Counted from the first letter of the stretch, positions 2,266 through 62,832 are shown. The stretch is DNA of 64,000 nt from Botryllus schlosseri (GCA_051294905.1 CM119372.1:3040001-3104000), one strand, 5' to 3'. Made by a program: numbers and translations. The notes: generated by a model from the letters alone, not told the origin.

Positions 2266-2884
2266 GTTATCAGTTTATACATTCTGTAATGCATGATGAA
2301 AACTATAACAATATCAATTGAAAAATATACTCGTATTGAAAGAAACCCGAAAATTTTCGGCTGGCGCTTGGTGGGAAATCGTCAGTAACTAATAGAGAAT
2401 TGGAAAGAACATTGAATATCAATAATCGTCTGCCCAATTATAGGGTTGCCTTGTCTCCTTCAAGGACGGCCAGACGTCCTCCTTTTTTGCAATTTGTCGT
2501 CCCTTATAGCTCTAAGAGCCAGGCAATCATAGAACTAAAAAATTGCATAAAATACGGGATATTTGGATATGGACGGCAAGAAGTCGCCAACCCATAATAT
2601 GTGGGGCATTTGGTAGTAGAATTGGTAAAATGACCTTTTTTCTTTCAATCAGCACACTCAACACACCGGTAGTAGCAGTTAAATTTCCAAATTCCCCATA
2701 TTAATGAATGCTACTTGATATTGTGCGAAGTTTTATTTATGAAAATATTAGTAGGCTTACGTATATAATGATTTGTAAATGCCGTCAGATCTGGATATGT
2801 TAACCAATTTCTGATACCGTATCAACTTAAGCAATTACAATGTAATATAATTTCCACGCAAAATAATCTTGCACTTTCTTACAG

Positions 2885-2996
2885 CCTGGTTCTGATGTTT
2901 GGCGACTTGAATTTCCGTATTGACGAGTATTCCAGAGCATTTGTACTTGATAGCATCAAGAAAAAGAACTATTCCGAGCTTTGGTCAAGGGACCAG
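2885..2996 (+). CDS. INPP5K: INPP5K/J-like exon
   Basis: acag|(D)LVLMFGDLNFRIDEYSRAFVLDSIKKKNYSELWSRDQ|gtaa. Contains the catalytic motif GDLNFR; not in the supplied ORF track. Confidence 0.92.
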
Positions 2997-4112
2997 GTAA
3001 AGCTGTTCCATATCCATTTATCGGTTGTGTGAAGCTTGATGCAATTGGATTTGCCACGCATGTATGAAAGAATATGATTGATCTGTTTGGTAGTCTGTGC
3101 TGATGATGACTATCTTTGAATACAATGAATCATTGTTTGTCACGTCATTAATAATTGAACCTGGCAAACAAGGTTGGAATTGAAGGAATTTTAACACAGA
3201 CTATTCTGTATTTCAAATATTTCAGTTATTTATTAATATTAATGTGTAGATTCAAGCCTAATCAATTAGCCTTCAGTCTATGTCGCTGGTATTGGTGCAC
3301 TGTTATTTTGAGCTGAGATAAGTAATCCGTTATGAGAAACAACAATTACAGTCATCAATTGGAACAATAGAGTCATTATAAAAACGACAAATACAGTCTT
3401 TAATAGGAGGATGTAGGCTACCTAAATCAGCACTTCCTACTGTGCACTGTGCGTGCAGTGATGCAATGTATTGTGTAGTCTGGATTGGTTTTTAGTCAAT
3501 CTGGCAAATTCATTCTATACTATAGCATCTTACACAGAGTATTTTCCACAGTAGGACCTACCCCAATAATGTAAGGGCTTTAGAAGTATTTGAAAAATAC
3601 AACTCGCTTCAATACAGATGTAGACAATATTGTCTACATTAAATTAGCGAATAGATCAATTCACGCTAAATTTTCATGATTTATGATCATCGCATCTAAA
3701 ATTATCCAGGCCCAGACCATGATATTGTTCTAACGAGTGATCAAATCAATCATTGCCTTGATTATATCCCGTTATTTACACTGTCGTATAAGCTCAGGGC
3801 TATTCTTTAATGATTAATCATTAACATAATATGATTTGTTAGAGCTTACAGTATGGCAGATCACAAATTTGGTCTATTTATGACTTTGAGATGTTTAGGC
3901 TATGTTATGATACATGACTGTGTATAAATCTACAATTTTTTATACATGTATCAGACTACACAGTTCACATTTTCAAAGATCCTTACATTTTTATTATTTA
4001 AATTATATTGATTATACCCTCATGAGGTGTTATCAACTCATTGTTTGCCAAGATATTTTATAAAAGAATCCACTCGAGTTTGTGTGACACAAATAGACTC
4101 TTTTATTCACAG

Positions 4113-4190
4113 TTGAAAAAGCATATGAAGTCACATCCGATTTTGTCCACATTTGAAGAAGCAACACTGGATTTTGATCCTACATACAAG
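4113..4190 (+). CDS. INPP5K: INPP5K/J-like exon
   Basis: cag|LKKHMKSHPILSTFEEATLDFDPTYK|gtacc. Contains the FxExxxxFxPTYK motif; phase 0/0. Confidence 0.9.
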
Positions 4191-4638
4191 GTACCGGTTT
4201 TATACTGTTCTGATCTGACCTGACCGTAGAAGCGATTGATATTGGACTGAAAACATCAGTACTTATGCGGATCTACTTTCACTGTGTTGTGCATATTTAT
4301 CGAACCCAAACCGAAAGCGTGACAGAATCTGGTGTATAAGTTTGATAAAGAGTAGTTGCCCAAACCTTTCATTAATGTAAATCACTAGAACATAAATATA
4401 TTTTCGTCCTTGATGTTTTTGCGGCACATACGCCGACTCATGATATACATACACACGATATGTGCATATGCACACCATGAGTGCATGATGGACATATGCC
4501 GCTGGACAAGGAAGGTGCAGAAATAGCCTGGTAAGGCTTTCAAAGTCTTGCGCCACCCAACGAACATTATCCCGCCTGTGAATGGTTTTGAGTTGGCGGC
4601 CCCTGGTGTATGCGTTAATAATTGTTGCCTTGTTGTAG

Positions 4639-4747
4639 TATGACCCAAATACCGATATCTACGATACAAGTGAAAAGCAAAGGAAGCCAGCGTGGACTGA
4701 TAGGGTCCTATGGCGTATTCATCCGGAGTTCAAAGCAGGCAAGAGAG
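4639..4747 (+). CDS. INPP5K: INPP5K/J-like exon
   Basis: tag|[36 protein letters not shown]|gtaag. Contains the catalytic motif PAWTDRVLW. Confidence 0.92.
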
Positions 4748-4874
4748 GTAAGGACATATGTTAAACTTGGAGGTGGTTAGTACTTCCGAGTACTCAAGTA
4801 CGGTTTGCCTGCTTGCACCAATTGATTAACTGGTTATGTTTGTACTCTTTGTATTTGTTGTAATTTTCAATTGA

Positions 4875-5392
4875 TTAGTATATTCATATTGAAATGAACC
4901 CGAATATTTTCTGCCAACACTCGTTACGGGTAATCGTCAGCAACTAGTAGAGAATTGGAAAGAACAGGGTATAGCCTATCAACAATCGTATCACAAAATA
5001 TGACTTCACCGGCATGAAATTTTGAATAATCGGGAGGAAGAGAAGACTTGAGCTTAATATACTATATTTAGATGGTACACAAACTCTTTCTATAGGCACA
5101 ACCTTTGTTTGCGTATTTTGATAAAAGTCAACTGCAAGGCACCCAAATGAAAGTGTCGGCCTCTCCCGGCAACACAAAATCTGCCGTCTCGATAATTTTT
5201 CACGCAAACAGGACCGTTGCCGTCATATTTTGTGGTACGATTGTTGATATACAATGTTCTTTCCAATACTCTACCAGTTCTTGACGATTACCCCTGATGA
5301 GTGTCAGTCGAAAGCATTCGGCTTCTATTCAATATGAATATAATATTCCAATGTATATTGATTGAAGTTCTGTACCTCTAAGAATCTCTTCA
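4875..5392 (-). mobile_element. 5'-truncated Penelope-like element (GIY-YIG C-terminus plus 3' pLTR) with an inverted pLTR at its 5' end
   Basis: Minus strand ~5200-5060 reads NYRDGRFCVAGRGRHFHLGALQLTFIKIRKQRLCL*KEFVYHL, homologous to the PLE C-terminus near 62200-62300. The ~170-bp repeat follows it, and an inverted copy of the repeat lies at ~5220-5392. Confidence 0.8.
5290..5323 (+). ncRNA. Minimal type I hammerhead ribozyme motif in a PLE pLTR
   Basis: ACCC-CTGATGA-GTGTCAGTC-GAAA-GCAT-TC-GGCT: core intact, stem I imperfect. Confidence 0.55.
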
Positions 5393-5891
5393 GATGTTGT
5401 AGTTTTGTAAATTAGAAGTCTGTTTGGGATGGAATTGTCCTGCTAACTGCCTAAAATAGCCCCTGTATCAAAGTAACTGAATCTATTTTCGAAAATAGCA
5501 CCTATTCACAGAAACGTCATAGTTCCACTTGAATTAGTTTTGACATGTTTCGGAAATTGGTCCTGCTTGTAATTGAGTCGAAATCTACAGTGCTAATTCT
5601 GCTTTTAGTTAAGTACCAATGCCAGACATTTGTATGCTATACATGCAAGGCTTTGACACTTTAGTGTGTGAGTTTGTTGATAGGGCTGAGCCAGGGGTAT
5701 TTTGGGGCTGTGACGTCACATGCTCAAGTGTCGCATATGGTGGAGTGTTGACAGCCATCTTAGCAAATTGGATATGGCCTCTTTACCCGAAAAAAGGAAT
5801 CCGGTTTTGGCTTGTGAATATCTACTGTGCACCAAATCTTACTTGCATGCTGCTACAGTTAACTTATCAAGACTGTTACCGCTCTTTGCAG

Positions 5892-7056: not shown

Positions 7057-8140
7057 TTTCTCTAGCTTGCGACAAAGGTGTCTGTTATCATTCGTGTACT
7101 TCCGTAACACATGGTGACTTTTGTAGCAATTCAAATTTACATAATTTTATGAGAGACTGTTGGAGGTACGGAACTTTAATATCCTATTGGGAGGTACGGA
7201 ACTTTAATATCCTATTGAAGGTTGAAGACCTTCTTGGAGGTACGGATCTTCAATATACAATGGAATAGTATATTGATATTGAAATATACCCGAATATGTT
7301 CAGCTGACACTCGTCAAATTAATCATCAGCATCTAGTGGAGAATTGGGAAGAACATTTTATGTCAACAATCGCATCACCAAATAAGTCGTCTGTATGACT
7401 GTAGTTGGGTCGATTAGAAAATATCGGAATTACTGTTGAAATGAAACGATTAACTTCGGTTGAAGCTGGTCAGTGACTAGTAGAGATTTCGAAGGAACTT
7501 TGTATATCAAATCAACAGACGTATCACCAAATAAAACTTCACCAGCACGAAAAATTTGAATATAATCCATGCCAACAGTTGGCTTAAAAGTTTAAATTAT
7601 ACAGGAACTCCGTCTTTTGGCACAGATGTTCGTTCTTAAATTGTCTTTGGAATACTTGGCTGATGTATGCAATTAAAACAAACACTGGAGTCAACTGGCA
7701 TTGCTAAAGTCACCCCTGTTACGGTAGTAGACATTTTTTCTTTCCGTTTTATATATTGGAATCGGTCGCTTTCCCTCTTTTCTTAAGATGATCCCAAGGT
7801 GATTATAAGATATGCAGATCGCACAATATAGTTTTTATGTAATTTCAGTTGGTTATATCCGCCCTGCCGTGTGTGTTATAATTAATGTCTTGGTTTGTTT
7901 CTGACCATGAGTTACTCGCGTTTTAGGAATGTTTTCATTTTACTCAACATCGATGTTACTGGATTCTGGATTATGCAGTTAATCGTATGTAGTCTCTGTG
8001 CTAGTGATTAGCGTTGGGCTTAAATCCAGTCTTGATGATTCTTCTGAACCAAGTATTAGGTGCCGGGTATCACTCATTTTATCTGATAATAGCATGGATG
8101 ATTTGGAAAACTCATATATGTACCTTTTAACCACAACATA

Positions 8141-8858: not shown

Positions 8859-11082
8859 TACATTGAAAATATACTCAGTATACACGCCACATTGATGATG
8901 TTTTTCAACCATGTCTAGTTTTGTGAGAACATTGCGGACTCATTACTGCTTCGCATGTAATGTGCGTGTTTAGGATGTTGTGTTACAAGCAATTTTGATT
9001 TCAAGGCTGTTACTCAAAAAACTAGTCTCTCAATACTTGCTCGAGTGATTAGAATTAATACTCGATTACTCAAATCAATGTGCTCAGCCCTAATGGAGAT
9101 ATAAAGTTCTGGTAACACTGTTCAGTACCATACTGTCATTCTATGTCAAGCGAAAATTTGTAATGAAATGGTGAAAGTTGAAAAGCACCCTGTTCCCTAC
9201 TGGCTAATGGCTACGTCAGCATTCCAAGAATTTCGATTTTTGCCAAAATGGAGCATATGGCGCCACTCACGTTTTCATATTTAAGTGAGAGTAATGAATA
9301 ATCTTTCCAAGTTTAGGAACATTAAAGCTTTTAGTTTGCGTTGATGGCGCTGGTGGTACCTCAACTCGTCTGAATTGTATGCTGGATGATTTGTTGCGTT
9401 GTTTGCGAACGTACAGTTGGCATGACTGGCTGAATTTATATGGTATGGTCCATGTTTTATTACAAATCATTTTAGGATACAGCTTGGAACAATGTAATTT
9501 CTCCACCTGACACGTAGACTTCTTCAAACTATTGTCTTTGAATAATCTAAAATTTCTATTAGTTGTAAGCTACGATTTTAGACTACTGACTTCATATGTC
9601 ATGCCAACTTCTTGATTTAGCTTATGTAGTGTAGTGTACTGCTCTGTTACAATTAAAAAGAATCCCTATTTGGTGCACCCCAATCATTCGAAAATTGTTT
9701 TTTATACCTTAATTGCAAAGTGAAAGCCAATGAATGAATAATTGAATAATCTCACTGCGACACTGGACAGTAATATACAGAACATCCATCTATTTCTTCT
9801 TTTATCATTGTAATCTCGCCGTTATACTTGATTGTTCTATGCGTGTTACTGAATATTATCATCCTATTCCATTGAATGATTTTAATTTTTTGATGTAGTT
9901 GGTTTTCCTGTTTCGTCCGTACATTTAGGTTGCCACTTCTTTCTGTCAAATTGCTATATGGAGTTGATATAACTTATCTGAAATATATATCCTTCCATTC
10001 ATGGCATCGTGGTAGTAATGACTTTGAGTCATTATATTAAATACTAGTGTGTCAAGACGGGTTCATTGTAACTTCCAAGAATGGTTAAGTTACCATGTGA
10101 TTGCTATTTCGTTTATTATAGACTGATACTTGAACAGTAGGGTGACAAACTGAAACTGCAGTAGGGTGACAAACTGAAACTGCTAACAGTGTTATGAATT
10201 TGAGGCAAAACTAAAAAGCAAAACTAAAAAGTAAGATTGGCTCGGAACCTTGCGATTTCGTTATCAGTAGCGTAGGAAGTATATGACAGCATGCTTGGTT
10301 CAAGAACTCAGATGCTGTTCTCATTTGTTGTCTTTGAGGACGACTCCTTTCAACTGATCTGTTGCATTTGATTTGGATTGCTGACATATCCAAGGCGGAA
10401 TTCTTCAACTGAATTATCTCTTACTCGGACGGAACACACGTTGCTAAAATTCATCAGGTCATGTTTGAAGGTCTGTGTATAAAGCTAGAATAATCTATTT
10501 TGCAATCACATCCGAAATACCCGGAACAAAGGGCTATTACATGAAACTAGGCCTAATGCACAGAACAGTAGAAAAAGCATTGAATAAACGAGTTGCAAAT
10601 GATAGGATATTGGAGTTGACAAAAACTCAAGGCACAGGCTTCTACGTCCGATGATGATTTCACTGGAAACGGCTATTGAGTATCAAAACAGTATTCAGGA
10701 CTACAAGCAACACTAGGATAATACAAAAATGATTACGATCGTCTAGAGAACTTCAAAGGTTTGATATTTCCGCTACCACTATATGGATGATGATGAATTG
10801 CAGATGGATCAGAACTTCATTATATAATTGATAGTATACCCTATACTCATATTGAAATGAACCAGGACATTTTCGACCCTAACACTTGTCAGGGCTAATC
10901 ATCTCTACTAGCTAATGATTATCCCTTATGAATGTCAGCCGAACATATCAGGATTTATTTTAATCTGGAATACACTATTCAATTATATAATGAAGTGTTG
11001 AAATTGCCAGCAAAAAATTCCAGGAAGCTGCATGCGCTAATAGAAAAGGCAAGCCAAGACCATGGTATCAAATATTTTCTAT

Positions 11083-13107
11083 TTATAATATCGATTTATA
11101 TTTGCACGCAAACATCACCCAACTGGCTACCGCGTCTTCGGGAAACACAAAAACCTGAACCCTCACAGCCAGTCGAACATTATCCCCTCTGCAACCCAAT
11201 ATCTCTGCGCACACCCTGTTCTTCAAGCAGCTGGCAAACGCCCTCCTGGCGTTTCGGTGCAAGAATTGAATCGGAAATCCTTTGAAGGTGTGTCCCTCCG
11301 GAACAGCTCTACGAATAGCTTCCTGAAACTCTTCGTTGCCGGAAGCTGGCGGTTCCCCGCCGCTCGTGCGTTCACTCTCATATGCTGCCAGTGCCGGTGA
11401 CAAGACATAACATAAATGATCATCCCAGCACGTTGATAACTCCAAGTCTAACCGGTGTTCGACAAGTAAACCTCTCAACTCTGATTCCATTTGACTGCTA
11501 GCTAACGCCGGGTCAAGAGTAGGTGTTAGCAATGGCGCAATTGGTGGAAAACCAGGCGCATTAGCGCCAAACACTGATTTAATGGCTTCGTAGCTCATAG
11601 GCTTCCATTGCGATGAGTCGGATATGTTGAAAGTACAAGTTTCGACGATATCAGTGGGTTGAGAGTTCGCAAAAAAGTTTTCATGACTATACATACATCC
11701 TATGCTTTTAAACGGATGATTATTCACGGGTTGCTTTATCGCTGGTGGATCATCAGCTGATACCATACGGTGCATATACCGATGGCCTGTTACTGAATCC
11801 CAAAATATGACAGTGGCACCTTCGCCGTATCTTGTGGCGACCCAAGTGTATGGTACACCTTTGCCTTTCATACCAACGCAGACGTAAGCATCAAGTCCAA
11901 ATCCCAACAGCAGACTGCACAGCAAATTAGAGTGATCCTCATGATCGCCTTTACGTAGTGCAAAAAAGGCGTGTGATGTGAGCCACTGTTCAGTGCCACT
12001 AGCGGAACCAACGCTAGGAGCACGCTCGTACCCTAAAGTACTAACGAATCGAGCTGCTTGGCGTGGAGTGTGCAATAACCTGCCCGCACGTAGCGGTTTC
12101 ACGAAAGTACACACAGGCCGGTTTCGACCAGTTTCGTCTTGCGCAAAAATCTTCACAGATCTACAATTGTGCTCTTCGCGTATTTGTAGATATTCTTTCC
12201 ACCATTGCTTCGCGTAAACTAAAAATAATCTTTCCCGTTCAGCGACACGCCTACGTTCCAATTGACATTGCGCATCGACTACTTCACGTGTTAAGTTAAC
12301 TCGGTTTTGCCGTGGCACAATTTCAACTTTTGCTTCCAATATGCCGGCCGGGATTTTAGACTCGGAACCTACACCCATCAATTCGATCGATAACTTGATA
12401 GAACCTTGCGCATCACACAAAACTTTCCGCCATTCCAAGTAATGAGTGCCGACTAAAGTTAAAGTTCCATCAGGGTCGGTACGTGTTAGTATTAAATGTA
12501 TTTGGTCGCCAAGTGATAACATAGTCTCAGTATCAGCCATACGTGCTTCACCTCCTACCGCATTAGAATGCAGTTCTAACAGAAATCCTTCAGATAAGTC
12601 AGGCTCACACGCGACAGGTACAGGCCTAGAACGGAACCTCTGACCGCGAAATAAGATATGAAGTGTGAACATAGCGTGCGGCTTTGTGGTATCGCTGACA
12701 TTCCCCGGATATTCAGGCGTGTTGAGATGATCGATGAACGCTTTTCCTCCGAGAACATGGAAAAATATGTAGCGACGCGTTGGGTCTACGGCTACTTTAT
12801 TTTTCAAGTCGGCTTGCACCAATTCTTCCTCGATATTTTTGTGAGTCGCGGGCTTCGTATGTGCTGATACAATCGGTGTTTCGTACCTCAATCTTTGTAG
12901 AATTTCTTCGACCACCCCACGGCGTTTCAAGTCTTCTAATATATCGCCTTCTGATATCTCCTGGTGGTCTTTCTCGGGGGATAGGTGTTGACGTAAGCTT
13001 CCGGCTAACGCATCTTTAATTTGCGTGGACACGTTTGCTTTGACAAGTTGATTGTGTATGATTTGTTTCAGTTCCGCGAGCTTTTCGGGAGGAAGGGCAG
13101 ACGCCAT
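11083..13107 (-). CDS. CEP76: Centrosomal protein CEP76, intronless, 674 aa
   Basis: Single ORF. The N-terminus MASALPPEKLAELKQIIHNQL matches the CEP76 start. It has a C2-like region (FRGQRFRSRPVPVACEP), ERERLFLVYAKQWWKEYLQIR, the transglutaminase-like GDHEDHSNLLCSLLLGFGLDAYVCVG and the C-terminus WVMFACKYKSIL. The ATG at 13107 is preferred over the track's TTG start at 13167. Confidence 0.95.
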   Translation of the reverse strand: MASALPPEKLAELKQIIHNQLVKANVSTQIKDALAGSLRQHLSPEKDHQEISEGDILEDLKRRGVVEEILQRLRYETPIVSAHTKPATHKNIEEELVQADLKNKVAVDPTRRYIFFHVLGGKAFIDHLNTPEYPGNVSDTTKPHAMFTLHILFRGQRFRSRPVPVACEPDLSEGFLLELHSNAVGGEARMADTETMLSLGDQIHLILTRTDPDGTLTLVGTHYLEWRKVLCDAQGSIKLSIELMGVGSESKIPAGILEAKVEIVPRQNRVNLTREVVDAQCQLERRRVAERERLFLVYAKQWWKEYLQIREEHNCRSVKIFAQDETGRNRPVCTFVKPLRAGRLLHTPRQAARFVSTLGYERAPSVGSASGTEQWLTSHAFFALRKGDHEDHSNLLCSLLLGFGLDAYVCVGMKGKGVPYTWVATRYGEGATVIFWDSVTGHRYMHRMVSADDPPAIKQPVNNHPFKSIGCMYSHENFFANSQPTDIVETCTFNISDSSQWKPMSYEAIKSVFGANAPGFPPIAPLLTPTLDPALASSQMESELRGLLVEHRLDLELSTCWDDHLCYVLSPALAAYESERTSGGEPPASGNEEFQEAIRRAVPEGHTFKGFPIQFLHRNARRAFASCLKNRVCAEILGCRGDNVRLAVRVQVFVFPEDAVASWVMFACKYKSIL

Positions 13108-13352
13108 GCCGTGTTTACTGCGGTCTGTATCGGAACTTAACAATTGCTTGCTAAATAAAATATACAAATTGTAATTTTAGTCACTATGAACAGAGAACAA
13201 AAATATCACAGCATTGAAATATCAGGAAGACAAAACAGACTCCATGCCGTGTTTATTAACATGTGTATCAAAACGTATTAATTGCTTGCGAAATAAAATA
13301 TACAAATTGTAATTTTTTCTAAAATCAACAAAAACTGTTACGGCATTGAAAT
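13085..13352 (-). repeat. Diverged ~138-bp tandem duplication of the CEP76 start/5'-leader region
   Basis: CCATGCCGTGTTTA...ATTGCTTGC(T/G)AAATAAAATATACAAATTGTAATTTT...GCATTGAAATA occurs at ~13104-13221 and ~13242-13352. Confidence 0.85.
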
Positions 13353-13390
13353 AGGCCATCTCTAAGGAAAACAAAATAAATTAGCAATAT

Positions 13391-14473: not shown

Positions 14474-15628
14474 TCACTCCCATACCATGTCATTTCGCAA
14501 TGGATCAAAAGCCACTATAAGCCACCCGAGTGCCGCAAAAACTGCTCTAAGAACATTAAGAATAAGCCAAGTGTTAACAGACGATGCAGGATCCAATAAA
14601 GACCCAGTCAATTCCGCAGGTAACGTGGATGTCGCAAGTGTAGTAGTTGATGTTGAAACGGTATCACTAGTGATACCAACACCAGAACTAATCCAGGCGT
14701 CTAAGCCCGAAAGTCCGACACTAAAACAAAACGTTACGAAATACACAAACACAGACACGGCAGCAAGGTCAAACTTGATCAAGCTGTTAAAGAAATGTTT
14801 ATCTTTGTTAGCAAAATCATACCTATCCATGGACGATACAAAAAGTGCCGAGAGAATGATATAGTAAATAGTTTGTGCCGGTAACGCGAGAGTTTGATAT
14901 TGAATCAAGAAATTTTGTGTTCTATTCGGCTGATACAAGGAGTAACAAAATATTACATGCCAAATAGCCAATCCCGCCAATGCACCGTGTAATGTAAGCG
15001 TGATGTACATGAAGATCTTTTCGTTTTGCTGCGCAATATCGAACGGTTTCAGTCTATCTTCGCCATATGTCAATCCAGCATCGTGTTCTGCGGCTTCTGT
15101 TCTTTTGTCGATCCATTCTCTATTACGTGCCACGAATCCGTTAGTTGTTTGGATATAAACTCTATCATTTGGCGCACTACCACCAATTCCTGTAGCAATC
15201 CCCGGTAGTGTTGATAAAGATACATGGCCATCCGCTCGTTCTACAATTACCAAATCTTCTTCATTTTCGAGCTCAGACACTAAAGTTCGATGCAGATTGG
15301 CTGATTCTTGTTTTTGCGTGTTAGCTTTCGGTCGCCTGCGTCTATTTTCTCTTGATTGAGACTCAGCGACTGGGACATCATCTCTGGAACGGGAAGGTTT
15401 TGCCTGTGTTTGAGAACTACTCACGTCTATATCTCTTCTCGTAGTGTCTTCGTTTTCCGGTTTTTGTTTCTTACGCCGTTGAGTACGGCGTGGAACAGAC
15501 TCATCTACTGTGTCACCAGTGGCGTTGTTGGTGGATTTTATCGAGGGTAAGGCTCTAGTGGGGCGCGCTTGTGGAGCATTATTCAGCGTCGGCAACGCCC
15601 TAGGGGGCTTAGGATTAGCGTCTGACAT
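14474..15628 (-). CDS. TMEM237: Transmembrane protein 237 (ciliary transition zone), single long coding exon
   Basis: Charged, low-complexity N-terminus followed by HGALAGLAIWHVIFCY...QYQTLALPAQTIYYIILSALFVSSMDRYDF and WLILNVLRAVFAALGWLIVAF, the 4-TM TMEM237 pattern. The extreme C-terminus may be spliced. Confidence 0.88.
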   Translation of the reverse strand: MSDANPKPPRALPTLNNAPQARPTRALPSIKSTNNATGDTVDESVPRRTQRRKKQKPENEDTTRRDIDVSSSQTQAKPSRSRDDVPVAESQSRENRRRRPKANTQKQESANLHRTLVSELENEEDLVIVERADGHVSLSTLPGIATGIGGSAPNDRVYIQTTNGFVARNREWIDKRTEAAEHDAGLTYGEDRLKPFDIAQQNEKIFMYITLTLHGALAGLAIWHVIFCYSLYQPNRTQNFLIQYQTLALPAQTIYYIILSALFVSSMDRYDFANKDKHFFNSLIKFDLAAVSVFVYFVTFCFSVGLSGLDAWISSGVGITSDTVSTSTTTLATSTLPAELTGSLLDPASSVNTWLILNVLRAVFAALGWLIVAFDPLRNDMVWE

Positions 15629-15932
15629 CCTTGGATGATCTCTTCCAGTCTCTATTTCTAATAATAACTACCAAAAGTCAATAGCTAAACCGTATCTAGG
15701 CACCGTAAGCTACCAAGTCATCGAATGTTTTCTTCGTGACTTCAATTTTCCGTTGGTATTTTCGATGTTTTCGTTATAACGAAAGATTTACCTCGTTACT
15801 GCGTTGCTCGGTTATGTAGTTACGGAAGTATCATCATCATAATTTTATGAAATTAATTAACCCCATCACAGCAATATACAACGTAGATACGTTGTAAATT
15901 GCTATGACCACATCATTGCCAGGTAACAGTCA

Positions 15933-16158
15933 CCGCCTTTGGTGTCGTCCTTACCTGAGCAGACACACGTTTCGGCAACCCCAAGACGGAAGATAATTTC
16001 AATAGCTAATCGGTCGACGTGTTCCTTGCCGACTTGAAACGATTAGCAAAGTTGGCGGGTATCGGTCAAAACGACGACGAACGGCTGTTGAAATTATCTT
16101 TCGTCTTTGGGGTTGGCGAAACGTGCGTCTGCTCAGGTAAGGACGACACCAAAGGCGG
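15933..16158. repeat. Fold-back inverted repeat (~75-bp arms) made of a gag-like fragment
   Basis: CCGCCTTTGGTGTCGTCCTTACCTGAGCAGAC...TTTCAATAGC / GCTGTTGAAA...GTCTGCTCAGGTAAGGACGACACCAAAGGCGG. The + strand translates SVDVFLADLKRLAKLAGIGQNDDERLLKLSF. Confidence 0.8.
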
Positions 16159-26224: not shown

Positions 26225-28062
26225 CCCTATACTATTAGTAAGTATAGAGTAGTATGAGCATGGAAAACAGTTTTCCATGGTATGAGAAACCAAGAGACTA
26301 CTCAAACGCGTGCATTACAAAATTGTTCAAAAAAAACAAGCAAGGATATTTCTAATCGCGCGCTAATTCCCACCATCTTTGGAAGTACCTTTAAATAATG
26401 CATGTCCACATTTTATTGATTTCTTTCACATTCAGTCCCGAGGTTGGTATTCAGCATTGATATAGCCTAGTATCCTCGAATTTGATTTGAATGCATTTCG
26501 GAGATATTTGATGGGCTGAAATTATAAATCAGAATTATTATTGAATAATATATTCATACTGAAAGGCACCCGAATATTTCTGCTGACACTCGTCAGGGGC
26601 AATCTTGAGAGTTTCAAAGAACAATGTATACCGCCAACTAATAGGAATATATAATTCAATTATATATTGAAGTTCTACCCTCAAAGAATCTCTTTAAATA
26701 GTATTGAGTTGCATTGATGTTATTGAAATTATACCGATTTTTATAGATATATCATTAATTAAAATTCTGCTCCGTACGAATGCGTATGTATCATGCTATC
26801 GTGGCATCCCTACTCACCGCTTTTGAGATCCTATTTTTGAAATTTTTCACATCAATTGGTATCGATTGCAGGTGCGTCATTATTGATTGCATTTCCGTAC
26901 GAGATAATGGAGGCAGTAGATTCGTCTTAGGATCCGTACGAAATGAATGCTTACCATGCAGTCATTAGCAATTCATGTCTTTGCAATTATTTTCATATCT
27001 TTTCTTGCGCATGATAGATAAAAACGAAATGCTATAAATAACCGTATCTGGAACATTAAACCTCAGCTATTCCGTCGGGTTTAATTGTGGTCCTTAAATT
27101 GCCTAATGTCTAGCGTCAAATGTCCTTGAAACTCGGCGCGCGTATCCTTGTTCTTAAGCTCGCAATATTGATTTATCTTCCGAAATACTGTCAAAGACTT
27201 GTCGATTGAGATATCGACTCGTTCTCTGCATTCGCCGAGCGGAGTGGACAGTTAAGACACAAAAACGCAGACGTCTTTATGCTGAGGTTATCTGTACTTC
27301 GAATTGTGAGTTATGCCTACGTGAGAGAATGGTAATAATTACAAGCGCATCCCGATTGTCGCCATCGGTATGTTACTGTAAACGCGACTGATTTGGTGAG
27401 GGATGGTTGGTCGCGGCTTCTGTTTTAACGCATTGCGAATTCTCATTAAACGTTTCGTATATAATTCGAAGGATTGGTGAGATAGATTCCAGGATAATTT
27501 AAAGTCCGTTCTGTCCTGAGCATACCAGACTTGTACAAACTACCAGTCTAGTTACTGTATAGTTGACCGTCAACATCATGGGGTGTACCGGTTCAAAAGG
27601 GTGCAGGGTGCAAGAGAAACATTGCAGTTTATATCCGGTTGTTGATGTTGTCGACGTAATTTTAGTAATCAGCCTCTGAACTGCATGGACCAACATATCG
27701 GTTATATGGAAGTGACGGCCTTTTCTTAGTTTGTGCACATACGCAGCATGAACAGATTGAACAGGAACACCGATGTGTGACAATTTGTTGGCATGCAGAT
27801 AAAACCGATGACCTTTTTTAGCCGCCACATACAATTTATATAGGTTTACTTGTCAGGGGTGCATAAGTCAGAGCTAGGGTAGAACTTTCAAGCGTGGACC
27901 ACTCCGAAAAAGGATGGAGAGCGCTTTTAGTTCTGGTTCTAGTTCTAGTCGCACATTACAATAATTGTTGCGGAACAATTAGAAAACAAGTGTCGTTGAG
28001 GCGTGAATCGTGATACCGGTGTTTTGTTGTGTGATGTTCTGGCAGCTATTGCTAGCTCAGAG

Positions 28063-29821: not shown

Positions 29822-30498
29822 GTAAGTCGCGTTGATTAGTATCGCATTAACATTTCATTACATATATGAAAATTTGAAGAGCCTCTAGCTAGGAGGTACA
29901 GAACTTCAATATAAAATTGTCTTGGTATATTCATCTTGAAATAAACCCGAATATTTTCTGCTGACTCTCGTCATGGGTAATCGTTAGCAACTAGTAGAGA
30001 ATGGAAAATACCATACAGTATGTTGTTGACGATTACCCTTGCCCAAGGTCGTAACTGCCGCACTCTAAACTCCCTAATTGTGGGGGGCAAATTATTTCGC
30101 AAATCAACATCACAGATAAAGTATTTTTGGGGAGATTCCGCAAAAATTCAAAATTTTCTTCGTGCGATTTCGTGTAGTTTAATGTCTACTTTTTAATATG
30201 GGTACTCGCAGTGCCCCTAGAAAAAAATACGCATATTTTCAGCGCCGGCTGTTACCTCGTCACGACACACCAAGACTGTTGGAGTTTCGGCCAATATGCG
30301 AATTGTGTGATCAAATAAAACCTTGGCCGAAAATTTCATCCGCAAGTTGGCCGAGACCATCAGTATATAATGGGCTGTTCAAAAATAGCTAATTTTCCAA
30401 ATTTCACTCACTTGGATATAAAATTGCCAGGTTTCCTTAACAAACGCTACACACCAAATTTGGGTCGAATCCGACCTGTAACGGCCGTGCAATCTTAA

Positions 30499-33694: not shown

Positions 33695-35338
33695 ATCGTT
33701 GTCACGGAGCTCTTTCGATGTAGTTCCAGCTTATCAGTGTCAAATTCATTTTTTGTTAGCAGTTTCATCATCCAAACTCGATCAAAGGCCTTTTCTCAAG
33801 ATGTAAACGCGTGAAAAAAAGCATCACTTTCCCTTCAGGCACGCCTGGAACACGATATTTGGTCATATCGAAGTGTCGAAATTTTTCACCGTAAATACTA
33901 TAAATTCAAAAATAATCGAAATTTCAATTTTAGGTTGCACGGCCTTTACTGGTCGGAATTGACCCAAATATGGTGTGAAGCGTTCGTTTAGGCAACCTGA
34001 CAATTTTATCACTAAGCGAGTGAAATTTGGAAAAAAAGTAATTTTTGAACAACCCTAATATACATATCATATTTCCAATTGGCCATTGTCCATTGGTACG
34101 GAATAGTCCTGTGCTTGCTATCTGAAGTCACCACTTCCCTCAGCTCTTCCAGTAAATCTGATCACGTGAACTGGGAGACGATGAAAAATTATTAGCAAAA
34201 TATGCACTCACCAATATTATAGACATAGTTCAATCCTTTGTGTGAATTTTTATGGTGCGTCTCCCGACTACGCACATAAATAGACATAGTAGCTTTGACT
34301 GTAAAACGTTCTTTTTTCTGTTAGTGGTGAAATGACCCGTCGTGAAGGGGGGCCTGAATGTCCAAGCCATCCAGAAGTTTGGTTTATGATCATATAGGGG
34401 GCCCAAGACCAACGTTTTAGAGAGGGATGGCCAAGTACTGTATCGGCCCTTCCCTGACGCGTGTCATCCCAAAATATTTTAATATCAATATATCAATGAA
34501 TTTTATATGAAGTTCTGTACCCCTAAGAAGCTCTCCAAATATTGGATAATGTTGTCGAATTTGCAATATCACCGTGACGATATATATGCATGTGTTGTGC
34601 AGGAGTTATCGACAGCAACTGCCGTTGTACAGAATGGGAAAGAACATTGTATAATGTATATCAACAATCGTATCACAGAATATGACTATGCGATGTTGTA
34701 CAAGGTACATATTCATTTGATTCGAATTCCATATAATAACTAATATAGACGTGGCGCACGAAACATGAGATGTTATAAGCGCCATCACTATAACGAGTTT
34801 AGTACTATAATATTACTGCATAACAGTAACACATCATCACACCCCGCGTGCGGTTACATATGTATGAATGCGCCAGGAAGCCAATAGCTAACTGGGTGTT
34901 AATCAGCCTCGCCGGCAGGATTATATTTGATCGCGCAAACATAAAACGTAATCAGCATCCATGCACTGCAGCAATGGCTGATTAGCGACTTAAATCGATG
35001 ATTTCCCCCATAGCTGGACCGACGGTCTTAACACCTTGCTCGTTGCTTTTGGTCGATATAATCAACCTTTGCTGCTGTGTAGGCACGCTGATTAGGATTT
35101 GTATTAAGCTTATTGCTGGCTATGTTTTATTGCGCGAAAAAATCTATTCTTGCAGATGAGTGTGATTAGCGCACTGTATCACGTCCGTTTCCGGGCAGAG
35201 CACAGATGTGACTGCGCAGTGTGCAGGTGCGCACTGTGCATAGTGATGTGTTGGTTCGTTTCCTGTTGTGTGTGTTGGTATTCAGCATACATACAAGTAT
35301 AATCACTATACTGATCGAGGTCAAGTTATACTATAGAT

Positions 35339-50287: not shown

Positions 50288-50768
50288 GTCATCATACACG
50301 AATAGATGTGAGAGATCCCGAAAGCGTTTTCCGTCATCGTCATGCACCGGCTCAGTTGTTCTCATAATAAGTACGCAAATCCGTCGAAACGCTGTACTTT
50401 CTACTTGAAAAAAGTAACAAGGAAAAACTTTAGCAGGAAATGCTGTTTATGCATTCGTTGTCTCGAGAACAAATTGGGTCGATATTACGAATAATATTGC
50501 TATATACAATTGCATGTTATATTGGTGTTGAAGTAAACCCGAATATTTACGGCTGGCACTCGTCAGGGCTATTATCTTCAGTAGCTACTAGATAATTGGA
50601 AAGAACATCGTATTTGACATATAATGTTGTTTTCTGCTAGTTGTTGACGATTACCCCTGACGAGTATCACCGGAAAGATTCGGGTTTATTTGAACAGGAA
50701 TACAAGTCCTGTACCTCCAATAATCTTAACAATATTTCTAATTGGCCGTTATCTGTGTCTCATTTCAG

Positions 50769-51544: not shown

Positions 51545-52485
51545 ATACAATGAATGATAGGAAGATGCCGAAACGACTAGGAGTAGTCTTGAGATCAGAC
51601 ACCCACCTGGGCCTAGGCGATGTAAAGAGAAGGCATGCACACTAGGGCTGTTCAAAAATAACTTTTTTTTTCGGATTCCAGCCATTCACTGATTAAATTG
51701 TCAGGTTACCCTAAAAAAACGCTGCACACCAAATTTGGTTCGATTTTAACAAGTATAGGACTCCGCAGATCCAATTAAAATTTTTAATTTATTATGGAAA
51801 ATTAAAAAAAAAAAATTTCCAGATTTTTCTGCCAACCCCATGAAATTATTGAGCTGTCTTCAAAGACGTTGCAAAACAAATTTGAGTCAATTCTGACCAG
51901 TAGAAGCGGAGTTATGTGAGTTTTTCGTTGATAAATCGCGGATTATCCACCGATCAAGGATAATCTGAGGATTATCATCGAAAAACTCACATAATTCCGC
52001 TTCTACTGGTCGGAATTGACTCAAATTTGTTTTGCAACGTCTTTGAAGACAGCTCAACAATTTCACGGGGTTGGCAGAAAAATTTGGAAATTTTTTTTTT
52101 TAATTTTCCATAATAAATTGAAAATTTTAATTGCATCTGCGGAGGCCTTTACTGGTTGGAATCGAGTGAAATTTGGTGAGCAAGGTTTTCTACTGCAACC
52201 TGACGATTTAAGAGGTGACCGGCTTGAATCGGGAAAAAATGTTATTTTTGAACAGCCCTAATGCACACTGAATGAAAATATAAGAAGATAATATAAAGTG
52301 GCAAGCGATAAAATCAGGTGGCAAGTGACGAAAGGCGAGATCGATATGTCAGGTCGTGGTCCGGTAAATGGTGAGGGCTGACTAGTATTCATCCAGCAAA
52401 AATTGCTGGTATTTCGACTTGAATGCGGACATGCTCGACGACTGTCGGATAGCCGGCGAGATGCTGTTCCACACTTCAGCTCCGT
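51545..52485 (-). mobile_element. 3' fragment of the same CR1/L2-like LINE, split by a palindromic MITE
   Basis: 51545-51642 and 52261-52485 align with ~16707-17030. Confidence 0.75.
51643..52260. mobile_element. Fully palindromic MITE, TAGGGCTGTTCAAAA family
   Basis: ~300-bp inverted arms meeting near 51950; perfect TSD ATGCACAC. Confidence 0.9.
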
Positions 52486-56222: not shown

Positions 56223-58550
56223 CTGGTAATATATATGTATGCAATTCCCGATATTATTGACCTATTCAATAATGAATTATATAAATTTTTCGCGCTTGGC
56301 GTGACGAAGCCGTAAAAACTGACTCGCGAATGACTATAACAAATCTCGCTCACAAAGTGCCGGTGAGAACGTCTGACCTGTTGGGTGGTCTAGGAGGCGA
56401 GGACCCCAGAATATTGGTTCATCACCCTATGGGGAGCCCAATACCAACAAAATACCGGTGTTCGAATTCTAATCTCATTTGTGAAACGTTTCTAAGCTTT
56501 GATTCTGATCCTAATCTAATACCTGGTTTTCCTGGAAATGCTACAGGAGAACTGTAATATGCGGATCGAACCATGCTTGCTGTACAGATATTTTCCCGTC
56601 TCGTGCTTTTTGAGATTGAACTCTGATTTGGTAGAAGCTGAACCTGATTTCTGTTGTATTTCTTTCTAATTCCAAATTGAATTCCATAATTCCTTTTTTG
56701 GGGTGCTCAAAATATGGCCGGCCCATATAGTTTCTTGCTGGTGATTCAAATGGTCATGGGCGTGGGCACGAATGGTTATCCGGAAATCAACGTGAATAGG
56801 ACCTTATCGAGATACACATACTGCATTGCAACTGTTGACAGAACTTACCAAAGAGTAACAGGAAAAGCTTACGCTGGAAATGATGACTTTGCGTATCAAA
56901 ATAGAATCGCGATCTATTCCTTGTTTTATTAGTGATTGATCGTTGCCGGTGTCGAGTAGGCTGGGCATGCGTGCCATCAGTATCAAAAATATAATGAAAA
57001 GCAAATTGAGTGAGGCATGTCACGTAAACGGTTTTGTTTGTATTGACTACGCGGAAGTCGAGCGACTAAAAAGGCGGGTTAATTCTATAAAAAATAATAC
57101 CGTTATAGTAATGTCTTTTTATTGTCATTATAAATGTTTTTTTCTCGTTTATATGCAGGGTGATGGCCAGGGATTAGTTCACTGCTTCTCAAACTGTGGT
57201 ACGTGTACCAATAGTCGAACGGGAGGCCTTTTTAGTTATCGGATTCGGGAGGCGGGTACGTCACAATTCTAAATTCACTGACACTAATCGCTAAAGAACC
57301 CGAACGATCATTATCGGCTCGCCGATGATATCGAGTCCATGTCACACTTCGAAAGAAATATTAGTATCGGCTCTTTGAGCTAAATACATATCGGCAAAAT
57401 TACCTGACGTTACGGCATGGTTGTTCGGGGTCAGAGATTTATAATAATATGCGGGGAATGGGAGTAATTTCCTATAGCTTACAGGCAGAGGTGTAAGTAG
57501 GCAAAACCTACTTGAGTAGTCTACAATAGTTGAAGTGTCTCATTAGTGACCACCTATGCTCCCTTTCATGTCCAAGTATAGTAACGAAAGCAACGCTATC
57601 CAAATGGTGCGAGTTGAGCTATATGCCATGTTTTTTTAAATATCGGGTAAATATATCGGTGAAGAAGCTAGTAATCGGTTTTGTCAGTTTTAGCACAAAA
57701 ATATGATATCGACCGGGCCCATCTAATATCACATTATATAATTCTGATTTGTGCCTAAAAATACTGCACGTTAGGTTAATTACGAACATTTCCGAAATAT
57801 TGGGGCATGGCCTCTTCCGCCTCTTGGGTTCGTCTATGGGCACAATTACGGTACAAAAGAAGAACAAAACGGGTAAAAACAGCCGAATGACAACACAACA
57901 CTAATGAAACATATCCAGAGTGTAGAGATGGTGTTTCTGGAGGCGGAGGATCGGCTGATGCAGCTTTATAATGATTTTAAATGATTTTACAAACGGAGCG
58001 AGAGAGCGCGAGCATCTGTGAAAAACTGGATGCTATTATAGTATTGGGCGCATTCAAGATGGTCAGTGGTTTTTAACATTTACTATGCTTGATAACCCTT
58101 ACGCTAATCTACAAGCCTTCGGCGAACCCCAAATGTTCACCTGATGGTCACAAAAACCATAATCCACCATATTGGCATTGCGCAGTTAATGCACTACTAT
58201 AAAATACTGGTACACATGACGAACTGTGCACCGACCACAGTGTTGCAAATAAAAAACGTTACAACATAATATTCACAAAAAAACAAAAATATTATAATGA
58301 GTATTTACTGCAAATCAATGTGACTCTGCTATATGAGTTGGGTGTGTTTCTGGACATCAGACGACCCCTTGAAAGTAGCCCAACGAACCACAGGGTTTGA
58401 ACCCGCTTAACAACCACTGTTTTAGGTCCTGTCCGATACCTGAATTGTAAACCGCTATATCAGCTCATTGTGATGACGAGGTGTAAGGGGTATCATCCTG
58501 CGATATTCAAATTTTGACTGGGAAGGCCTTGCTGCAAACGATGACATGTT

Positions 58551-58700
58551 TGAAGAGCTTCTTGGAGGTACAGAACTTCAATATACAATTAAATAGTATA
58601 TTCATATTGAAATGAACCCGAATATTTTCGGCTGACACTCGTCAGGGGTAATCGTCAGCAACTAGTAGAGAATTGGAAAGAACATTGTATATCAACAATG
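58551..58700 (-). mobile_element. Solo Penelope-like pLTR, best-preserved copy
   Basis: Consensus-like copy of the dispersed ~170-bp repeat shown at 4875-5030 to be the PLE 3' UTR. Confidence 0.75.
58616..58649 (-). ncRNA. Minimal type I hammerhead ribozyme
   Basis: Minus strand ACCC-CUGACGA-GUGUCAGCC-GAAA-AUAU-UC-GGGU. Stem I is ACCC/GGGU, the core is intact, stem III holds the palindrome AAUAUU, and the cleavage triplet is UUC. Confidence 0.72.
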
Positions 58701-59211
58701 ACGATGACATGTGCGACACATATGGCTATTGTCACAGCGACACGTAGCCTATTCCGGTTAATTATGTTGCTCTGAATTGCAGGTAACAAGTCCTCATCAG
58801 AAAAGGAATAGGCGGAAAATTAATCTTAGGCAGTGCTGCATTGTGTCATTCGCATGACGGTACACATTATATACATCACCTGTGTGTAATAGCGTAACCT
58901 CGCGTAACATTTGAACCGCTAAACCCATTCTATAAAGTTTTGACTTCCGGAATTGCACCACATCAGTGCAGTATCTTCATACATAAATAGACGACGTGGT
59001 TCAACCCTGTATCAGATTCCATCTTACCATGTGCAATATTGCATAGGGAAATAACACTAACGAGCTCCGTGGTATCCGCGTGAGATTGAGAGTGGCGTGG
59101 GTATTGGGTAATTTAGAGATGATCATTGCAAGGTGAGCCTAGTAGTAACAAATAGTTGATGAAGTCAACACGAGCTGTTCCGAATTTCTGTAGATGTGTA
59201 GTGATGTTTCG

Positions 59212-59514
59212 GGTTGTCCGACATATGAGCATGCGACACAATGGAAAACGACAGTTCAGCATGGAACACATCAGCATGCGCCACTTCAGCATGTGACTGC
59301 ATAACCCAGAAACTTACTCTAACCCGAAACGTAGCCTAACCTAACCTAACCTAACCTAACCTAACCTAAAGCCTAACCCTAACCCAACCATAAATCCAAC
59401 CCTAACCTACCCCTAACCCGTAATTTAACCCACGTGCTCATGTGTCGCATGCCAAATTGTCGCATGCCGAAGTCTCGCATGCTGTAATGTATCATGCTCA
59501 TATGTCCACGGACC
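59212..59514. mobile_element. MULE-like MITE with a telomere-like (CCTAA)n core
   Basis: 9-bp TSD GATGTTTCG; TIR GGT...GACATATGAGCATG; ~15-bp AGCATG subterminal repeats; (CCTAA)7 at 59335-59369. Confidence 0.8.
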
Positions 59515-60074: not shown

Positions 60075-60899
60075 CAGGGGTGGCAAACCTTTTCAGCCAA
60101 AGGGCCACATGAGATTTACGAACCATTGCGCGGGCCACTTGAATATTGATGACCTTTTGGTAGTCGTCCAATAAGAGAAAACCGGATTAGGTAACGGTGA
60201 AAGCAAGACTTATATTACCACGCATCAAAAATCGATCACACTTATGTGAATAAAATCCAGTTTACGGTAATGTCATAGCCGCGCCAAGCGCGATATTTTA
60301 AAAAAATTAATGAATGACCGTCGCCTCTGTATATGACTGGGCTTATTTGGCAAGGACTGGATTATTCGGCGCCTGAACAGTGAACATATCGATTTCATTT
60401 TGTGCCAATGTTTCATCGATCTTTCTGCAAGTGTAGCCGTGAAGTCTCATGTTGGACGACACTTTCTCTCATAATTGCCAATATAGCTAGACTCAATTCT
60501 GCAAATTGGGCGTAATTTAAATTTTCAGGAGGGGGACCAATACTAAAAGCAAGCAATCGAGTGACAATAAATCACGCGAAGCGATAAGAAAAATATCAAG
60601 TCAAATAAATCTGCCTCGAAATATTCTACTTGATTGTCGTATACGAAGATCTACGAAAAATCGGGTTGTGGCCCCTTGCTACGCCAATTCGTCGGAACTG
60701 ATATTTTAGTCTTCAACATCCCGTATTACGCGGTCAGACTAATCAAATTTTGGTTGGCCATGCGAGTTTACAATAAATTACCTGGACAATGTCTTTTTTG
60801 ATATTAGAGTTAATTTCGAGAATTATCTCGCGGGCCACTCTAAACCTACTCGCTTGTCACTCAAAACCTTCTCGCGGGCCACGGGTTGGCCAGCCCTCG
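60075..60899. mobile_element. Charlie-like hAT MITE
   Basis: TIR CAGGGGTGGCAAACC / GGTTGGCCAGCCCTCG, GCGGGCCAC subterminal motifs and an imperfect TSD. Confidence 0.7.
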
Positions 60900-61395
60900 T
60901 GTATATAGTTGAAACAAAGAAAAGGCAATGAGACCGCTTACAAATCTCTGGAAATTAGTCTTACGTTCATTTTCGCGAGAAGCCGTTCATCTCAATTGCG
61001 GGATCGTATTTCACTAACATGGTCCAGAATCGTGCCCAGCCTATTCTTGGCTGAAAGCAGTCTGGAATAGGCCTCGTTATCGTTGGAATTTAAGTCCGGG
61101 ATGTTCCCTCCGAATTGAAATGAGATGACGTATATACAGAAGCGTCGAACTAAATCAAACTTCCTCTGCGGTCGGAATGGCCTTCTTGTCGCAAATTGCG
61201 ACGCTATTTGAATCCCCGAATCTCCCGCTTTTCGCTCAATATTTGTATGTTTGAGGTACACATGGTGTTTGTAGAATACTATGGTCATTTGCACCAGGCC
61301 AATTTCTTCATTTTTATTCCGTAACTGCCGACTTGTAGGGTTTTATAGGACACCGCTTACGCCGATGATATGGCGACGAGGAGCCTAGATAACCT

Positions 61396-61748
61396 AGGGT
61401 TACCATGCGTCCTCCTTTAGGAGGATTTGTTCCCCTTTTTCGGGTTTTTGAAAATGTCCTTCTTTTTGAGATTGTGTCCTCTTTTTTGAGAATTTTGGTT
61501 AAACATAGGGCAAAATTCAACTGAGATACAGTAAAACAGCACTGAACTTACGCTCCGTCGGGTATTTCGGGAGCTGAGCCGGAAAGTTCACTATTTTGGA
61601 CGCTGAGCGAGAAAGTTGACCTTTTTTTAGTCAATCGATCACGAAGTGGAAAAAATTCACGATTTTCCTTGATTTTCCTCTTGTATTCCAAGTTTGAAAA
61701 TTTTGAAAAAGTGTCCTCCTTTCCCGATTCCAAAATATGGCAACCCTA
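61396..61748. mobile_element. TAGGGTTACCAT-family hAT MITE
   Basis: TAGGGTTACCAT ... ATATGGCAACCCTA; homologous to 47152-47454. Confidence 0.75.
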
Positions 61749-61849
61749 AAATAAACCTACAACACTTAGGTAGGAATATGCCTAAATCCGAATCTCGCAA
61801 TACAAAAATAAATGTGTCTGTATCAGTGCTTCCCAGCACTGTTCAATTG

Positions 61850-62302
61850 AACAATTGATTTCGGCGGTCACCAAGTGTTATGACACAGTGAAAAACAATG
61901 TGATTTTTACGACAACGCAACTGCTCCCTTCGTAACGTACAGACGTGCTTCCTGCACTTCAATAAAGCAATGTAGCGTACGAATATAAGTGTCACTGTGA
62001 CTGTGGTTACGCAGGAAGAAAGTCGAAGCGTTTGCAGGAACTAATGAAGCAGCATGTTCCTAGATTTATCCGGAACACGTGAATCACGCTCGGTGAAAAG
62101 CTCACGCTTGACTCATCCACTCAAGCTAGAGGCTGAGAGATCAAAGGCCATAAATTCTACCATTGGCAAACATCTGTTGGATGACCCCGATTTTGCAGAA
62201 AATTATCGAGTCATCGGGACAGGCTCTCACAATTTCATTTGTGTACCTTGGAGTCGACCTTTATCAAAATACATCACCCCAAGCTTTGTCCACAGAAGGA
62301 GT
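61850..62302 (+). mobile_element. Decayed Penelope-like fragment, GIY-YIG endonuclease region
   Basis: Aligns with 63835-64000 and continues YAGRKSKRLQELMKQHVP...STIGKHLLDDP...FIKIHHPKLCPQKE, with stops and frameshifts. Confidence 0.85.
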
Positions 62303-62671
62303 TATTATTATTATTATAGATGGTAAAAAATGAAGTGGTGCATATCACCGATAAAGGTCTGGTGCACCACGTGCAAAGTTAATCGTAAAGAATAGTCAAT
62401 TCAGGACAAATACATATGGAAAGGTTGAAAAAATCATAGCAATACGATACAAGAATCCACGAATTCGATGGCAGCCGTAAAAAGTAGCGGGTTATCTCAA
62501 GGTTATAAGTACTGAACGCAAGATGTAGTGCTTCACAATACTGTTTTACCGTACGTCTATGGTGAGCGTATTTACAACATGATAAAATAAAATGTTCGAC
62601 AGTGTCTGCTACGAAAGCAGGAGCTCGTGAACCATCTTCAAATAGTACATTGAACGCCCTCTTCTTTGAGA

Positions 62672-62832
62672 TTTCATTTCATGCTGGGGACGTCATATTT
62701 TGTGATAACTGATAAGATTGTTGATATACAATGTCCTTTCCAATTCTCTACTAGTTGCTGACGATTACCCCTGATGACTGTCAGCCGAAAATATCCGGGT
62801 TCATTTCAATGTGAATATACTATTCAATTGTA
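62672..62832 (+). mobile_element. Penelope-like pLTR in direct orientation, abutting the truncated RT ORF
   Basis: Copy of the ~170-bp repeat. Its hammerhead motif at 62767-62800 has substitutions next to the core. Confidence 0.75.

Follow-up and report, generated by a model that had tools for sequence, protein, structure and literature searches.

What is the commonest dispersed repeat in a 64,000-nt stretch of the Botryllus schlosseri genome (GCA_051294905.1 CM119372.1:3040001-3104000; hereafter the window), and what sets apart the ribozyme motif that it carries? A sequence-only reading of the window had described the repeat as the pseudo-long terminal repeat (pLTR) of a Penelope-like element (PLE) with a minimal hammerhead at its centre. 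Our analysis makes it probable that the repeat is the pLTR of an endonuclease-bearing (EN+) PLE, present mostly as dead, 5'-truncated copies, with a type I hammerhead braced by a predicted pseudoknot of 6-7 pairs between loop II and the leader. Neither the element nor its truncated copies are out of the ordinary; the unusual part is the ribozyme variant, with its one-pair stem II and its predicted loop II/leader helix. The variant is of interest because what PLE hammerheads do is still called unclear (PMC8557442) and because those tested so far cut poorly, reportedly without tertiary contacts, which PLE hammerheads usually lack according to a review (PMC6155905); a variant with a predicted brace stands apart from them.

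The parent element

The repeat is almost certainly the pLTR of a protein-coding EN+ PLE. Endonuclease ends lie upstream of two copies (at 4.9 and 62.7 kb), and a reverse transcriptase (RT) frame follows the latter. The coding copies are listed here with their open reading frame (ORF) remnants; the covariance model, here and below, is our own and was built from 9 training sequences including 2 window copies.

62833-64000, plus strand: unbroken 389-codon PLE frame (RT, thumb/linker, GIY-YIG start), 5'-truncated and open at the window end (RVT_1 E 6.6e-8)
61849-62832, plus strand: upstream 5'-truncated PLE copy with short tail (blast and profile matches, covariance model, contig joints), made up of a decayed linker and endonuclease at 61849-62303, the ORF end at ~62610-62650, the 3' flank and a damaged hammerhead at 62754-62806
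4862-5213, minus strand: 5'-truncated PLE copy with endonuclease C-terminus 5213-5054, 3' flank, damaged hammerhead 4892-4944 and short tail

As the sequence-only reading had proposed, a GIY-YIG C-terminus precedes the 4.9-kb copy: positions 5213-5054 (minus strand) match PLE proteins with a profile probability of 97.3% (E 1.6e-11). A second, interrupted endonuclease half is found at 61849-62650, upstream of the 62.7-kb copy, whose short tail is directly abutted by the RT frame at 62833-64000; this frame runs into a GIY-YIG start and was absent from the earlier description. The segment 61849-62832, followed directly by 62833-64000, is the partial tandem that forms the pLTR. The homology evidence for the whole element combines relatives with the window pieces, the window itself holding no full-length copy. 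With the RT frame as query, 714 out of 3911 candidates (682-2000 aa) proved to be relatives, and the best of those with full length is a protein of 841 aa with RT and GIY-YIG and 66% identity; the 53-aa endonuclease remnant as homologue query gave no matches. The endonuclease end is split by an insertion of ~310 nt at 62304-62610, which starts in a short TTA run and is missing from contigs of other copies.

The last ~55 nt of the long repeat copies encode the N-terminus (first 18 codons) of the relatives' ORF (tblastn; profile E 8.5e-8 at 58605-58546), so the predicted ribozyme cut falls 14 nt before the AUG. The layout is ORF end, 3' flank, hammerhead, 14 nt and first ORF codons, and in four related families the distance from predicted cut to AUG is 3 to 52 nt. 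The sense orientation originally assigned to the motif is upheld, whereas its placement simply in the 3' UTR has to be revised, since it sits just ahead of the start codon.

With canonical EN+ PLEs, as described in PMC8557442 and PMC11167929, the element shares the order of RT and C-terminal GIY-YIG, 5' truncation, pLTR-forming partial tandems, an adjacent inverted truncated copy, a hammerhead at the pLTR/ORF junction and a one-sided 30-40-bp tail built from the first codons of the ORF. It differs from the anole PLE, whose ORF is reported to begin inside the ribozyme (PMC11167929), in having the cut 14 nt before the AUG. The Cys linker motif was not seen in the window frame, and the element may be of Penelope/Poseidon type, a tentative clade name drawn from this missing motif, since the RT tree contained no named references.

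The endonuclease end of a second PLE subfamily lies at 57904-58061 (minus strand), with no hammerhead after it. PLE-like RT sequences also occur in bacterial metagenome-assembled genomes (L081-L093; P0050) and are likely host DNA carried into the bins; in the 13 PLE-like loci found in prokaryote genome contigs the covariance model gave nothing below E 0.2. Viral contigs yielded no match by protein, alignment or DNA pattern.

The hammerhead motif and its predicted loop II/leader helix

The motif is best read in the solo copy at 58.6 kb.

58549-58699, minus strand: best-preserved ORF-less pLTR copy, with long tail, the sole one of 13 with all motif features (covariance model 68.5 bits, the copy being in the training set)
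58616-58659, minus strand: hammerhead motif, with core 58645-58639 and stem I formed by 58649-58646 with 58619-58616
58638/58630, minus strand: one-pair stem II, with loop II at 58637-58631
58629-58626, minus strand: GAAA, with the palindrome at 58626-58621 and the predicted cut between 58620 and 58619
58659-58653, minus strand: leader strand of the predicted pseudoknot
58549-58605, minus strand: first 18-19 codons of the PLE ORF, with AUG at 58605, including the PLE tail (tblastn; N-terminal profile E 8.5e-8)
58538-58549 and 58701-58712: perfect 12-bp target-site duplication (TSD) round the copy (0.3% of 299 random position pairs score as high)

The motif agrees with its earlier description: stem I ACCC/GGGU, CUGACGA, a G-C pair closing a 7-nt loop, GAAA, AAUAUU and UUC. 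CUGANGA, GAAA and NUH boxes are joined by stems I-III with stem I open, as in a type I hammerhead with a palindromic, dimer-type stem III, and we assign the motif to the hammerhead class with high confidence. Measurable cleavage would be expected from the sequence with moderate confidence. All core bases are kept in two of the 13 copies (58.6 and 5.3 kb), and all helices too in the 58.6-kb copy; the 5.3-kb copy has kept its core and not its helices. At the three motif sites where the 62.7-kb copy departs from the intact one (62775, 62778, 62795), the majority letter in contigs from four public runs, among the matches listed, is that of the intact copy, so the intact motif is likely the parent form of the family.

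Stem II consists of a single G-C pair, and the 7-nt loop II is complementary to 7 nt that end 7 nt before the core. The idea of a loop/leader helix arose on the window family and was then tested on 80 related loci. The motif, with an equal 8-9-nt spacer, was found in 17 of them, giving five families including that of the window; the covariance model made 19 matches in 16 related loci and missed locus L056. The loop/leader pairs of the five families are GUCAGC/GCUGAC, GUCAGA/UCUGAC, GUCGGA/UCCGAC, GCUAGA/UCUAGC and AAUGC/GCAUU, and each family's loop pairs best with its own leader, in Watson-Crick helices of 6, 6, 6, 6 and 5 pairs (per-family p 0.002-0.036 against shuffled leaders or random 16-mers). 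Among 8 distinct sequences from four families, L056 being left out of the pair counts, 96% of cells in the loop/leader helix are paired and 4 of its 7 pairs are changed on both sides, while stem I covaries at 4 of 4 pairs. None of 500 shuffles, which ignore kinship, reaches the whole-structure covariation score, and slid registers are only 23-37% paired.

PLE hammerheads with a long stem II behave differently: none of 19 such motifs (stem II of 4-7 pairs, from more distant PLE loci) reaches 5 loop/leader pairs, the maximum being 4 and none significant. In a midpoint-rooted RT tree of 34 rows (the window plus those 33 of the 80 loci with an assigned motif type and at least 150 aligned residues), the short-stem form makes up one side of a branch with support 100/99. 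Taken together, these sequence comparisons suggest that the loop/leader helix is very probably under selection, and we lean towards its being an activating pseudoknot.

In the mechanism that we propose, stem I and the loop/leader helix would be present at once, the latter as a pseudoknot that keeps stems I and II parallel and so makes up for the loss of stem II. Two motifs of a tandem transcript would together build the palindromic stem III, as in dimer cleavage, and cutting, probably as a dimer or with protein help, would free unit RNA with a 14-nt leader.

Several observations weigh against an active, braced ribozyme. The helix of L056 has only 5 pairs, and this locus was found by pattern and not by the covariance model. 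The tests are not wholly independent of one another, given the kinship of the five families; three of these have most of the helix in common, and one, the window family, is the origin of the idea itself. The helix is broken in several family B copies, including L003 and L012, where the motif stands before a continuing ORF. Tree labels were set from motifs on the same loci, and the locus search was seeded with close relatives. Twelve of the 13 window copies are damaged, and a check against Rfam gave no hammerhead family at gathering score or at E<=10. The lowest-energy fold of the intact copy, from a program unable to form pseudoknots, is no hammerhead, since it pairs the core with loop II and sequesters GAAA. 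The excess of core over flank conservation on which the sequence-only reading had proposed to judge the motif is absent within the window (138/168 vs 749/891 in the 12 other copies; 82% vs 84%, p 0.57), an even decay that is as expected for dead copies; across families the core is kept while the flanks change. Viral type I hammerheads with a one-pair helix II are reported to cleave slowly, at about 0.01 per min (PMC13725137), and cleavage by the anole PLE ribozyme needed protein, this cleavage being described as dispensable for insertion in vitro (PMC11167929).

The core/loop II hairpin of the intact copy was also considered as a conserved switch. It has 5 Watson-Crick pairs in the window family and only 2-3 in the other four families, and was rejected because it is not conserved in them.

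The loop/leader helix might instead be an off-switch, a hairpin round the CUGANGA box that blocks cutting until it is refolded by a second motif or the PLE protein. The lowest-energy nested fold of families B and C does contain the helix, which there encloses the core, and no window copy begins at the cut, so that uncut RNA would be the template, as in the anole PLE. We nevertheless judge this role improbable: the helix and stem I use separate bases and both covary (4/7 and 4/4 pairs), and so can coexist, and the G...C spacer, fixed at 8-9 nt throughout the five families, resembles a published active form with a one-pair stem II (PMC3088659). That the motif is a decayed, non-cutting relic, its loop/leader match being inherited chance, would agree with the lack of an Rfam match, the non-hammerhead fold and the missing core excess in the window, but is very unlikely given that core boxes, G-C pair and (near-)palindromic stem III are kept across families with 52-68% RT identity to the window element, and that stem I and the loop/leader helix change in step across families.

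The braced motif can be compared with three published groups. It shares with the metazoan PLE minimal hammerheads of PMC4209133 the type I form, a short stem I, the G10.1-C11.1 pair, C3/U3 variants, a dimer-suited palindromic stem III (positions 15.2-16.2 / loop 3) and scattered single and opposite-strand copies. All 56 of the 56 PLE motifs published there (Fig. S3) have a helix II of at least 3 pairs, nearly all with an extra base after A9; in contrast to that consensus, the window motif and those of the four other families have a helix II of one pair, no unpaired base after A9 and a loop II that pairs with the leader. Pseudoknots have been reported in all three hammerhead types (PMC3088659), and the same source (Perreault 2011) describes a type II hammerhead with a one-pair stem II and a six-pair pseudoknot that cleaves at >1.2 per min and requires the pseudoknot. 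Our motif has the same one-pair stem II and six-pair helix tying stems I and II (here predicted). The Perreault ribozyme is a metagenome-derived type II form that pairs loop I with the 3' tail, whereas the window motif is of type I, pairs loop II with the 5' leader, belongs to an animal retroelement and has a dimer-type stem III. Hammerheads in the 5' UTRs of fungal RNA viruses (PMC13725137) are likewise of type I, with a helix II of 1-2 pairs and a cut few bases before the start codon; by that account they differ in their long helix III, their lack of a recognised loop contact and their tested effects on cleavage and translation, whereas cleavage of the window motif is predicted from sequence.

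No pseudoknotted PLE hammerhead was identified in the literature searched; the work of Lünse et al. 2017 on PLE hammerhead variants, outside that search, may already show the form. Pseudoknotted hammerheads and one-pair stems II are known elsewhere, and their combination in a PLE is what would be new. The abstract of Lünse et al. reportedly calls contact between loop II and a leader common in other hammerheads.

A U3 core (U for C, with G8 or A8) occurs in L004, L014, L019, L021, L047 and other family B loci; the U3-A8 variant is present among metazoan PLE hammerheads (Cervera 2014, PMC4209133). In family B loci including these five, just 3 nt separate the predicted cut from the AUG, which overlaps stem I.

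A wider picture, which we put forward as speculation and regard as doubtful, is that one PLE branch has a distinct and fast hammerhead (one-pair stem II, full pseudoknot, dimer-gated stem III) that would cut 3-52 nt before the AUG in five families to make uncapped translated mRNA, uncut RNA being the copy template. If true, this would provide a testable answer to what PLE hammerheads are for. A translation role like that of the fungal virus hammerheads is a possibility by analogy, and a predicted cut just before the AUG links the motif to the ribozyme-assisted translation reported for viruses and R2/L1Tc-type elements. A branch with a co-varying, mutable brace also offers a clean structure-function test, in a form missed by Rfam here.

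Origin of the short copies

The repeat is present at all 13 positions given in the sequence-only reading: with the 58.6-kb copy as blastn query the other 12 are matched at E 3e-48 to 4e-14, with additional partial arms at 26640-26698, 7469-7510 and 34600-34653, and the covariance model makes exactly 13 window matches at E<=1. The length of ~170 bp stated earlier was too high, the copies having 65-153 nt, mostly 100-150, in common with the best one. An upstream ORF remnant is absent in 10 of the 13. Besides the copies already listed, the window contains the following.

5214-5394, plus strand: long-tailed pLTR arm in inverted orientation, abutting the 5' end of the 4.9-kb copy (blastn, covariance model)
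4856-4867 and 5395-5406: 11/12 duplication framing the 4.9/5.3-kb pair (1.3% of 299 random pairs score as high)
2309-2429, minus strand: decayed ORF-less copy with short tail (blastn, covariance model)
7222-7640, minus strand: decayed pLTR with long tail (7222-7384) and partial 3' flank upstream (7469-7562) (blastn, covariance model)
Near 7590-7631, minus strand: weak ORF-end remnant of the 7.3-kb copy (profile E 2)
10810-10903, minus strand, and 10902-10996, plus strand: decayed divergent inverted pair (blastn, covariance model)
26540-26604, minus strand, and 26640-26698, plus strand: decayed copy with short tail and inverted tail-only arm (blastn, covariance model)
29873-30014, minus strand: decayed, long-tailed copy, with a small inverted piece near 30023-30040 (blastn, covariance model)
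34452-34544, plus strand, and 34600-34687, minus strand: decayed copy and separate 5' part (weak covariance match, E 0.51)
50502-50613, minus strand, and 50614-50730, plus strand: divergent inverted pair with short and longer tail, respectively (blastn, covariance model)
At 50493 and 50731: possible 9/10 duplication of the 50.5/50.6-kb pair (2.3% of random pairs score as high)

Adjoining the 7.3-kb copy, a 28-nt piece of the PLE tail is tandemly duplicated at 7152-7222.

The 3' ends fall into two groups after the predicted cut, at +36 to +49 nt (7 copies) and +64 to +71 (6 copies), and define two preferred end points ~30 nt apart. The 5' ends are scattered at about -28 to -106 from the cut, or lie deep in the ORF in ORF-linked copies, and none of the 13 copies starts at the predicted cut. 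Three inverted pairs (4.9/5.3, 26.6 and 50.5/50.6 kb) have one short and one long end each, and the 10.8-kb pair has two intermediate ends. One 11/12 duplication is common to the 4.9/5.3-kb pair, which argues that the pair was inserted as one unit. No convincing TSD was found for the 2.3, 7.3, 10.8, 29.9 and 34.4-kb units, and possible matches at 26.6 and 62.7 kb are borderline, the latter falling inside the ORF remnant. Two related loci (L021 and L047) have an ORF-plus-pLTR with an inverted pLTR upstream, comparable to the window arrangement.

All of these features (TSDs, inverted pairs, tails on one side only and 5' ends at scattered places) are what PLE truncation ordinarily leaves, and they support the earlier suggestion that the ORF-less copies are extreme truncations of the PLE. 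In the anole PLE, reverse transcription is reported to have two start sites within the opening codons of the ORF, and cutting and extension are reported for both strands of the DNA (PMC11167929); inverted adjacent copies and an optional 30-40-bp tail have been described for PLEs (PMC8557442). By the same route, two internal RT start sites would produce the short and long tails, and two priming events the inverted pairs. Uncut RNA would serve as the template for new copies, because no window copy starts at the cut.

As an account limited to the origin of the short copies, the pLTR-only copies could be complete short cDNAs, made by RT from an internal ORF-start site back to the transcription start in the upstream pLTR. 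We consider this rather unlikely. Internal initiation inside the ORF start has been shown for the anole PLE (PMC11167929), the upstream pLTR is given as the site of PLE transcription start (review PMC6765202), and the 5' ends of 7 of the 13 copies, and of the detached 5' part at 34600-34687, lie at about -66 to -106. On the other side, several short arms are trimmed at inversion junctions, many contigs extend upstream beyond -100 (with loose ends), and a similar picture is expected from strong random truncation, the start-site position being only putative.

The sequence-only reading had also allowed for a separate, non-autonomous retrozyme-like family, spreading by its own RNA circles. In common with non-LTR retrozymes (PMC7229834; 10.64898/2026.07.22.740005), the copies are short non-coding repeats with a type I hammerhead and pLTR kinship; the published units are head-to-tail and of fixed size, whereas the window copies lie dispersed, differ in how far they are truncated and belong with a coding element. 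The 10 of 13 copies without an upstream ORF remnant, a summed contig depth more than 100 times as high over the pLTR as over the 5' RT part (depth being no copy number) and a preprint that derives animal retrozymes from pLTRs (10.64898/2026.07.22.740005) speak for such a family, but scattered 5' ends (about -28 to -106, or far into the ORF), no start at the cut and no tandem array of the unit within the window leave it unsupported and extremely unlikely, the 3' ends, tails and sequence matching the coding element (95% blastn identity between the solo 58.6-kb and the ORF-linked 62.7-kb copies) and inverted pairs being already described for PLEs.

Other features of the window

A ~1-kb element at 30495-31490 with terminal inverted repeats of 332 nt is bounded by TTAA; its spacer contains a transposase-like remnant, and it is possibly Kolobok-like. 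Two neighbouring genes, CEP76 (11083-13176, minus strand) and TMEM237 (14474-15667, minus strand), both recognized by Pfam, are single-frame and apparently intronless, and the other genes of the window appear to have introns. The presence of these two genes suggests that the host is an animal-type eukaryote. Long inverted repeats at 51716-52189 and 15965-16126, which form hairpins and give sub-threshold Rfam hits, are probably miniature DNA transposons.

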